Positions 30,001 through 33,000 of a DNA stretch of 39,533 bases are shown piece after piece (position 1 is the stretch's first letter; every line of letters begins with the position of its first letter). Source of the stretch: a virus (lineage: Duplodnaviria; Heunggongvirae; Uroviricota; Caudoviricetes); the IMG/VR virus record IMGVR_UViG_2547132281_000008, positions 1-39,533 of that record. One strand, given 5' to 3'. The position numbers were made by a program.

Positions 30001-33000
30001 CTATCAAGGGGCTGATGGGAAACTTGGTGCTCTTAACCGTACTATTGCTTTTAATGCAGACGGTAAATCGAATTTCCTCTCTGTTGAGTCCAGAACAAAA
30101 GCCACTCGTGATTATGCATTGAGTCAATTGCAAGAGGCATTTGAAGCAGTTGATCCTCGCTTTTTTGGCCTGTTTGAAGATGAAGCTGGCGTGCGTGACC
30201 TGGTATATGAAATGCGAGGGCAAAATACTGGCAATGCTAAAGCAAGAAAAGGTGCTAAGGCGTGGAGAGAAGTGACAGATCTACTGCGCCGCCGGTTTAA
30301 TGATGCTGGTGGGGACATTGGCTATCTCGAAAACTGGGGGATCCCTCAACATCATTCTATGGAAAAGGTTGGGGCGGTATCAAAGGATAAGTGGGTTAGC
30401 GATGTTATAGGTAAGCTGGATCGCAAATATTATATCCGAGCCGATGGACAACTGATGAACGATGCCGAGTTGTCTGCATTTCTTGGAGAGGCTTATAACA
30501 CGATCGCTACTGGTGGGCTGAATAAGCTTACTGATACCGGAATGCGAATTTCCGGCGCACGTGCTAACCGTGGTAATGCATCACGACAGATACATTTCAA
30601 AGATGCAGATTCCTATCTGCAATATCAGCAACTTTATGGCGATCGTTCTCTATGGGAAATCATGGTCGCTCACCTGGAAGGTATCAGTAAAGATATTGCA
30701 CTGGTGGAAACATATGGCCCAAACCCCGATCATGTTTTCCGCTCTCTTCTTGATCAGGTGAAGGCAGAAACGGCAACAGCTAACCCGAGTAAAACCGGTA
30801 AAGTCGAGCGGCTGGCGAACAACACAGAGAATCTGTACAACTTTATTTCCGGAAAGACACAGCCTGTAGCGAATCCGCACATCGCGCGATGGTCTGACAA
30901 TATCCGCAACTGGCTGGTTGCCAGCAGACTCGGATCCGCGTTGCTGTCATCGTTCTCTGATCTTGGAACCATGTATCTGTCTGCGAAGGTTACCAACCTT
31001 CCAATGAACCAGTTATTCCGCAACCAGCTTGAAGCTATGGACCCAACGAACCGTACAGAACTTGCGCGGGCGCGCCGCGCTGGTCTGGCGATGGAATCTC
31101 TACTTGGCAGCGTTAACCGCTGGGCGATGGATAATATGGGGCCGTCTGTGTCTCGTTGGGCGGCAACGGCGGTAATGCGTGCCAGTGGGCTTACAGCATG
31201 GTCAGATGCGCACAAGCGCGCCTATGGCGTAACTATGATGGGAAGCCTGGGAGAAGTAGTGTCACGGACACCAGACCTTCGTAGCCTCGATGACTCTGAT
31301 TTTCGTATCCTTAAAAGCAAAGGGATTACTGACACAGACTGGAGCGTATGGAAGCTGGCGCAACAGGAGGACTGGGGGAACGGTAATAATACGATGCTGA
31401 CACCGGAAAGCATTATGCGTATCCCTGATTCAGCAGTTAAACATCTTGGTGAGCCTGAACGCGTGAAATTTGAGGCAATGCGTAAACTGCTCGGTGCCGT
31501 AACTGAAGAAGTTGATATGGCTGTTATTACACCGGGAGCACGTGAGCAACTGATAACCGGTTCTGGTATTCAGCGTGGAACATGGAAGGGGGAATTAACG
31601 AGAAGTGTTTTCCTGTTTAAATCGTTCCCTATCTCGGTTGTTATGCGTCACTGGTCACGCGCTATGGGTATGCCGTCTGCTGGTGGGCGTGCGGCATATA
31701 TTGCGACGTTTATTGCCAGTACGACCATTCTTGGCGCTTTGTCGCAGCAACTTAACGACCTTGCGTCTGGTCGTAATCCTCGAGAGATGACAGGAGAAGA
31801 TGCCGCAAAATTCTGGCTTGGTGCTCTACTGAAAGGTGGTGGTCTTGGCCTTTACGGTGACTTTTTATTGTCAGATCACACTAGGTACGGAAGCGGCGCG
31901 CTGGCGTCGATGCTTGGCCCGGTAGCTGGTCTGGTTGATGACGTAGTGAAGATTGCTCAGGGCATACCGTTAAATGCTGTGGAAGGGAAGAGTGATCAGA
32001 CTGGTGGTGATCTGGTGAAGCTGGGGAAAGGTTTGATGCCAGGTGCGAATCTCTGGTACTTGAAGGCGGCTCTCGATCATATGATCTTTAACCAGATGCA
32101 GGAGTATTTTTCACCAGGCTATTTGCGTAAAATGGAGCAACGTTCGAAGAAAGAGTTTAATCAGACATACTGGTGGCGACCGCAGGATGTCACTCCGCAA
32201 TAAGGATGAGAAATGATTGCTTTTATTCTTGTTGTGTTTGCGCTTATTGCACTTGGCGTTATGAACCGTAAATGTATCATTGGTGATGGTGAATTTGCTG
32301 TTGCAGTTGTTTTGATATTATCTGGTGTAGCAGGGTACATAGGTTTGTCATAACGTGAGCGTGACATGTCACAGGCCGCTTTCGCGGCCTTTAAATTTAC
32401 CGGGTTTGTTTTCGTAATTGTTCGGCACAATAGTCGAGATGTGTTTGCAGATCCCGCATAGACATCTGTGAGCTGGTGACGTAGTTAATCAGTGCAGTCA
32501 GTTCGGCAAGTGGGACATCGACATTAAATCCATCCTTATCGAGATCCCGGAGTAATTTCATCAAGTGCGATCCCTCCACCAGTGACCTGACGCCTCCCGG
32601 CGTGTGAATCCTTTCGGTAAATCCGTCTTCCAGTGGATAGTGATACTGCTGCATCTTATCTTCTCCATGCAATAACTGTATATTTATACAGTAGCAAATA
32701 ATTTGTTTGCTATCCAGCACGTTTTGCGAATCACCTGAAAGGTAATATCTGTTCGTATTTATGGGTTATCTATCCATATGTGGTTTTTCAGGTAATAGAA
32801 TAACCGGATATGCGGCGCAACGGGTGCTGCGACTATCTGGAGATTTAACATGACGGTCTCAACCGAAGTTGACCACAACGAATACACAGGTAACGGCGTT
32901 ACGACATCATTTCCTTATACCTTTAGGGTTTTCAATAAATCTGATCTGGTAGTGCAGGTGATTGACCCTGACGAGAATATCACTGTGCTGGCTCTTGATA

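Follow-up and report, generated by a model that had tools for sequence, protein, structure and literature searches.

A predicted LexA-controlled Ant/Rep induction module of the SPC32H type in a phiV10/epsilon15-like temperate podovirus

How might a prophage be induced by DNA damage when its repressor carries no recognizable self-cleavage domain? The question is raised by a small minus-strand gene, preceded by a LexA-like palindrome and located next to the tailspike gene, in the 39,533-nucleotide stretch of viral DNA analyzed here (positions 1 to 39,533 of IMG/VR record IMGVR_UViG_2547132281_000008; hereafter referred to as the window). The window is that of a temperate podovirus of the phiV10/epsilon15 type, belonging to the genus Uetakevirus, and it shares 97% identity with phages phiv142-3, PAS61 and ZX5 over most of its first 25 kb. 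The analysis points to an SOS-induction module that is very probably orthologous to the Ant/Rep pair of Salmonella phage SPC32H, with LexA controlling the antirepressor Ant and Ant acting upon the repressor Rep.

The small gene, its product and its position

The features of the locus are listed below, in the order of their coordinates.

32373..32390, no strand assigned: G+C-rich hairpin between ant and a convergent gene encoding a 46-aa membrane protein
32397..32654 (stop codon included), minus strand: ant, predicted 85-aa antirepressor gene (PDB 5D50_E, tblastn to SPC32H ant, phrog_450)
32660..32666, minus strand: ribosome-binding site (RBS) GGAGAAG, read from the sequence, 5 nt upstream of the ATG
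32676..32691, no strand assigned: LexA (SOS) box CTGTATATTTATACAG, 26.8 bits, in register across 10 related loci
32688..32696, minus strand: putative extended -10 element, TGcTACTGT, with no variation at TG and TA.TGT across the ten-locus alignment
32711..32716, minus strand: putative -35 element, TGGATA, separated from the -10 by a 17-nt spacer
32730..32746, no strand assigned: operator-like palindrome ATCACC-N5-GGTAAT, 13 bp upstream of the putative -35

The ant open reading frame runs on the minus strand from an ATG at 32654 to a stop codon at 32397-32399. The start and the RBS had both been part of the original prediction, and both are upheld by the relatives: in an alignment (A1) of the ant-tailspike intergenic region of ten loci, the GGAG is invariant and the start corresponding to ATG 32654 is kept, in agreement with the 86-aa length of the crystallized homolog. 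A longer open reading frame of 107 aa starting at a GTG (32397-32720) was rejected as an ORF-calling artifact, since its start would precede the conserved promoter blocks, and the crystallized protein together with the conserved RBS fixes the start at ATG 32654.

Searched against the Protein Data Bank, the 85-aa protein had one strong match, namely chain E of 5D50, the 86-aa 'Anti-repressor protein' of Salmonella phage SPC32H (E=2.5e-45, residues 2-84 aligning onto residues 3-85). Compared to the annotated SPC32H ant product, the protein encoded in the window is one residue shorter at its N-terminus and 85.5% identical by tblastn, or 84% by global alignment; the equivalent locus of both SPC32H and SPC32N bears the GenBank label 'ant: anti-repressor protein'. 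When Ant was used as a tblastn query over 50,697 phage records, 35 records were matched, every one of them at a coverage of at least 80%, with identities of 98.8% for each of phiv142-3, HEMP4 and PH444, 97.6% for gp24 of phiV10 and 81.9% for gp19 of epsilon15.

Profile searches with the 85-aa protein returned no Pfam family above cut-off and no NCBIfam model, and the ANT, Bro-N and KilA-C domains of P22-type antirepressors were absent from it in Pfam at E<=1. Its best PHROG was phrog_450 (E=1.4e-46), which is labeled 'unknown function'; phrog_15539, also of unknown function, was among the best PHROGs as well, and residues 27-75 matched the C-terminal end of the phrog_1760 'anti-repressor' profile weakly (E=2e-6). 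The suggestion that the small protein might represent a new antirepressor family has thus to be given up, since the protein is about 85% identical to a characterized and crystallized antirepressor that is annotated in GenBank. That it had gone unrecognized in the original prediction is probably due to the lack of a Pfam or NCBIfam model and to the 'unknown function' label of PHROG 450. On every testable feature, namely sequence, size, LexA box, cognate Rep and position, the 85-aa protein is, as read from sequence, an Ant of the SPC32H type.

Its position between the virion operon and the tailspike gene, which had been thought unusual, turns out to be the slot occupied by ant in every Uetakevirus locus inspected: all of them have ant on the strand opposite to the tailspike gene and directly upstream of it, and most have a large virion structural gene or a small membrane-protein gene on the other side of ant. 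The order and orientation of the window, in which a virion structural gene and a small membrane-protein gene are followed by ant on the opposite strand and then by the tailspike gene, are those of SPC32H. Where the window has the hairpin at 32373-32390, the annotations of phiV10 and epsilon15 place a terminator. P22 is likewise a temperate podovirus with an antirepressor locus, immI (ant, arc, mnt), placed after its last virion/ejection gene and just before the tailspike gene. The P22 Ant differs in being large and controlled by Mnt/Arc, not LexA, and the P22 c2 repressor is RecA-cleavable (PMC7380047).

In phiV10 and Tyrion, the same ant slot contains an extra gene, inserted beside ant, encoding a Bro-N protein. 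Bro-N 'anti-repressors' are encoded beside ant in these two phages (gp23 and gp20, respectively) and in ZX5 (ORF4), and in sister phages the Ant module recurs as the C-terminal domain of these Bro-N proteins; in phiV10, the C-terminus of gp23, along with gp22, resembles Ant. In the window, Ant is the stand-alone 85-aa form. No Bro-N gene was detected in it by tblastn with phiV10 gp23, which matched the ant gene alone, and a second antirepressor in the window was ruled out on these grounds.

The LexA box and the ant promoter

The palindrome CTGTATATTTATACAG at 32676-32691 is a LexA (SOS) box. Extended to the full LexA 20-mer, AACTGTATATTTATACAGTA (32674-32693), it agrees with the consensus TACTGTATATATATACAGTA at 18 of 20 positions. 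Scored with an approximate position matrix built from E. coli LexA sites, the 20-mer reached 26.8 bits, the training sites themselves spanning 15.8-27.3 bits; with the same matrix, the second-best site of the window scored 11.9 bits and the highest score in 100 shuffles was 19.3 bits. The shorter pattern CTGT-N8-ACAG occurs three times in the 39.5-kb window (0.49 expected), the copies at 15289 and 19831 being attributed to chance in view of their spacers, which are rich in G+C, and of their matrix scores, which do not exceed 8.9 bits. The near-consensus box singled out in the original prediction is thereby confirmed as the sole strong LexA-like site of the window, beyond chance.

The box is in register across the ten aligned intergenic loci, which come from phages of E. 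coli, Salmonella, Enterobacter and Klebsiella, with one base changed in the Klebsiella phages (ATGT for CTGT). It lies at the same place over the ant promoter as in SPC32H, with TACTGTATAAATATACAGTT in the window being nearer to consensus than TACTGTATGTTTATACAGTG in SPC32H, and its columns are those of the SPC32H box and of the SPC32N mutation. Over the 1.45-kb locus, SPC32H and SPC32N were found to differ by two bases, one of them inside the tailspike gene and the other in the CAG arm of the LexA box, where the C of SPC32H is an A in SPC32N; the equivalent base of the window is plus-strand G32678. Kim and Ryu are said to have reported in 2013 that the two genomes are two nucleotides apart, and that the change in the LexA box makes Ant constitutive and SPC32N lytic. 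The C-to-A change that we observed fits this reported mutation.

Conservation alone suggests an ant promoter composed of the extended -10 and the -35 elements listed above, the latter falling in a CTGGA.A block (around 32711-32717) that is invariant across the 10 loci. A generic sigma-70 scan returned no minus-strand ant promoter at its thresholds. The last four bases of the putative -10 are also the first CTGT of the LexA box, and LexA bound to the box would be expected to lie over the likely start of ant transcription as well as over the end of the -10.

The repressor and the proposed induction switch

The presumed target of Ant is encoded some distance away, in a region with the following features.

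6205..6789, minus strand: rep, 194-aa prophage repressor and putative target of Ant (5D50_A, 5D4Z, no S24)
6844..6860, no strand assigned: operator palindrome ATTACCCAACAGGTAAA in the rep/cro intergenic region
6944..7174, plus strand: divergent gene for a Cro-like regulator of 76 aa (phrog_35 'transcriptional repressor', E=5.6e-13)

Rep, which shares 99% identity with the repressors of phiV10 and ZX5, matched chain A of 5D50 ('Repressor') over its full length (E=4.4e-42) and the isolated C-terminal domain of 5D4Z (E=4.5e-20); the domains of SPC32H Rep account for both halves of the 194-aa protein. An HTH_3 domain was found above the Pfam cut-off at residues 106-147, and residues 21-61 were HTH-like, below the Pfam cut-off and backed by PHROG repressor families. 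Peptidase_S24 was not found in Rep by the Pfam profile search at E<=1, and the Rep sequence is devoid of Ala-Gly and Cys-Gly dipeptides. The description of the repressor given at the outset, with two HTH-like halves and no S24 region, therefore stands, the N-terminal of the two regions being the weaker match. In the SPC32H structure, the N-terminal half of Rep is DNA-binding, and the HTH-like C-terminal half is reported by Kim et al. (2016) to be the oligomerization and Ant-binding domain, the latter point agreeing with PMC9638917. The operator-like sequence ATTACC-N5-GGTAAT has 12 matches in the window (0.97 expected), including that at 32730-32746 upstream of ant.

The switch linking LexA, Ant and Rep in this genus is said to have been established genetically by Kim and Ryu (2013, J Virol 87:11775) and structurally by Kim et al. 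(2016, PNAS 113:E2480). SPC32H Rep is reportedly not cleaved, and the authors of the SPC32H work are said to consider Ant structurally distinct from Tum/Gifsy-type antirepressors. PMC7380047 describes self-cleavage of LexA in the case of SPC32H as leading to Ant and Ant as inhibiting the repressor; PMC9638917 has SPC32H Rep on DNA as a tetramer that is broken up when an Ant tetramer takes two Rep dimers; and the SPC32H mechanism is referred to in a 2025 bioRxiv preprint. E. coli relatives of the phage studied here are shown to be induced by DNA damage: mitomycin C raises ZX5 from 10^7 to 10^9 PFU/mL (2022 ZX5 study), and the DNA-damaging microcin Mcc1229 induces prophages of the Uetakevirus phiV10 species 21- to 47-fold.

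By analogy, host LexA in a lysogen would sit on the near-consensus SOS box over the -10 and likely start of ant such that no Ant is made, and Rep, bound to ATTACC-N5-GGTAAT operators across the prophage, would keep the lytic genes off. Upon DNA damage, activated RecA would promote the self-cleavage of LexA and ant would be transcribed; the 85-aa Ant would then bind Rep, which would leave the DNA uncleaved, allowing the lytic genes to be expressed. This is the mode of induction initially predicted, a LexA-controlled antirepressor directed at a non-cleavable repressor, and it is strengthened by the full-length homology of Ant and Rep to the pair crystallized in 5D50 and by the conservation of the box. 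The strength of the LexA box, the lack of S24, the co-occurrence of the two genes and the conserved position of ant by the tailspike gene all form part of the basis for the mechanism. LexA binding, Ant-Rep binding and the stoichiometry of the pair encoded in the window are inferred by homology.

The same logic, in which a LexA-repressed small antirepressor acts by protein contact upon a non-cleavable repressor, operates in the case of 186 Tum and the Gifsy/Fels-2 antirepressors (Shearwin 1998; Lemire 2011, PMC3121763; PMC7380047). The likeness of Ant to these proteins appears to be one of function, no sign of homology to Tum or to GfoA/GfhA emerging from the profile searches against Pfam, NCBIfam and PHROG. 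It is SPC32H that the window resembles in genus, in an Ant that is about 85% identical and in a Rep that is homologous over its full length. The two phages differ in host, E. coli here and Salmonella in the case of SPC32H, and in their repressors, Rep of the window belonging to a second lineage and being 42% identical to that of SPC32H, such that the Ant-Rep interface could differ.

Other ways of wiring the same elements were considered. Were induction to proceed as in lambda, Rep would undergo RecA-stimulated self-cleavage, and P22, in which an antirepressor is combined with a cleavable repressor (PMC7380047), shows that having an antirepressor does not preclude this; yet the lack of an S24 match and of Ala-Gly or Cys-Gly dipeptides in Rep, the correspondence of its C-terminal half to the HTH-like oligomerization (tetramerization) domain of 5D4Z, and the reported resistance of SPC32H Rep to cleavage make self-cleavage of Rep highly improbable. 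The operator-like palindrome upstream of the -35 could also be taken to mean that the ant promoter is mainly under the control of the phage repressor and that the LexA-like palindrome is secondary. The sequence ATCACC-N5-GGTAAT at 32730-32746 is indeed kept in all of the relatives aligned, and in epsilon15 the annotation marks the homologous site as one bound by the repressor; this operator may just as well belong to the divergent tailspike gene, however, and it is the LexA box that is near consensus, conserved and overlapping the -10, and in which a point mutation, the base change of which was verified in SPC32N, was reportedly enough to alter the phenotype. Control of ant mainly by Rep thus has, in our estimation, hardly any likelihood.

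A further possibility is that Ant is SOS-induced as proposed but does not act on Rep in this phage, having instead another conserved target or a role after induction. What gives rise to it is the unequal divergence of the two proteins from their SPC32H counterparts, 84% identity for Ant versus 42% for Rep, and the incongruence of their trees. Against it, a Rep homolog accompanies Ant in all 35 of the Ant-bearing phage records, the alignment of Rep to the very chain that was crystallized with Ant spans the whole protein, and the window holds no other candidate antirepressor. An Ant inactive on Rep is, on this evidence, very improbable, and we retain the reading in which Ant would relieve repression by binding Rep.

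Divergence of Ant and Rep, and the value of naming ant

The 42% overall identity of Rep to SPC32H Rep breaks down into 52% for the N-terminal domain and 39% for the C-terminal domain. The Rep proteins compared fall into two lineages, one comprising those of the window, Tyrion and BUCT554, and the other those of SPC32H, epsilon15 and a Klebsiella phage, with 42-47% identity between the two; the Ant proteins of E. coli, Salmonella and Enterobacter phages, for their part, share 80-86% identity. The incongruence of the Ant and Rep trees is exemplified by SPC32H and Tyrion, which share 86% identity in Ant and 46% in Rep. Two readings of the sequences present themselves: either Ant would contact a small conserved surface of Rep, and thereby act across lineages, or the interface may have drifted. 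In the tentative, and to us somewhat doubtful, extension of the former, Ant would be a broad inducer acting in trans through a small invariant surface present on both Rep lineages, and could cross-induce co-resident Uetakevirus prophages.

The system itself has been described before, and public sequences already include identical or near-identical ones; little is added to the biology, and the residual value of the present analysis lies in filling an annotation gap. The ant locus is found in 529 of 5,426 complete genomes of E. coli, its product being a 'hypothetical protein' in the records listed. In the 2022 study of ZX5, a near-identical phage, it was the Bro-N protein that was tested as an anti-repressor, and the ant gene was left unnamed. 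Labeling ant correctly would help to predict which E. coli prophages are SOS-inducible without cleavage of their repressor, including the O157-modifying phages of the phiV10 type.

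Putative Rep binding sites and inverted repeats

Allowing for up to two mismatches, the palindrome ATTACC-N5-GGTAAT was found 12 times in the window, where chance would give 0.97 copies; all but one of these sites were intergenic.

Copies of ATTACC-N5-GGTAAT in the window (17 bp each)
6070, 6132, 6844, 7229, 9175, 9237, 12673, 12691, 15818, 32730, 36325, 36789

The identical motif is labelled as repressor binding sites in the database annotation of the epsilon15 record. Since the motif was kept despite a Rep identity of only 42% (window versus Salmonella phage SPC32H), the prophage repressor appears to silence many promoters over the whole prophage. 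The genes named in this text are the following:

6205-6789, minus strand: rep, prophage repressor
6944-7174, plus strand: cro-like gene, divergent from rep
32397-32654, minus strand: ant, encoding the 85-aa homologue of the SPC32H antirepressor

One copy of the palindrome lies 13 bp upstream of the inferred -35 element of ant, where it may act on ant or on the tailspike gene. The spacer of the same inferred promoter is occupied by a perfect 7-bp inverted repeat, TAGCAAA-N7-TTTGCTA (32692-32712). In aligned ant-tailspike intergenic regions, this repeat was found in the window and phiV10 and was absent from the Salmonella, Enterobacter and Klebsiella relatives; it may be due to chance or serve as a site for another factor. 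Between rep and the cro-like gene, the operator palindrome at 6844 is accompanied by a second inverted repeat, facing outward (6860-6909; CATAGGTAAC ... GTTACCTTATG, arms 14 nt apart). Its half-sites, GGTAAC/GTTACC, are those of the operator in reversed arrangement. The Rep protein of SPC32H reportedly displays an unusual DNA-binding mode, to which the outward-facing repeat may be tied.

Distribution and surroundings of ant

Among 5,426 complete E. coli genomes, 523 carried the ant locus (32397-32760) at a coverage of at least 80%, and 529 gave a match of any extent; its product was recorded as a "hypothetical protein" among the matches listed. Searches of Pfam and NCBIfam returned no model for Ant. 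The protein studied as an anti-repressor in the paper on the closely related E. coli phage ZX5 is another one, of the Bro-N type, and not Ant.

Immediately 3′ of the tailspike gene, positions 35206-36309 encode a 367-aa multi-pass membrane protein. The equivalent position in phiV10 is occupied by an O-antigen O-acetyltransferase gene, and this analogy suggests a candidate serotype-conversion gene.

Ant-like domains and the relative conservation of Ant and Rep

In the phiV10 locus (L002, 509-1188, minus strand), the C-terminal stretch of the Bro-N protein gp23 resembles Ant residues 2-32, and the match continues in a different reading frame, across gp22, with residues 34-75. The gp23/gp22 pair thus looks like a frameshifted antirepressor made of Bro-N and an Ant-like domain, adjoining the stand-alone ant. 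No Bro-N gene was found in the 39,533-nt window. In a PHROG profile search, the C-terminal end of phrog_1760 ("anti-repressor", 232 positions) matched Ant residues 27-75. The Ant fold may, on these sequence matches, represent a reusable Rep-binding module.

Between the window and SPC32H, Ant (84% identity) is far more conserved than Rep (42%). Comparison of both window genes with loci of related phages (L003-L015) yielded incongruent Ant and Rep trees, with Rep splitting into two lineages. Together, the greater conservation of Ant and the incongruence of the trees hint either that antirepression works across lineages or that the immunity region has undergone mosaic exchange.
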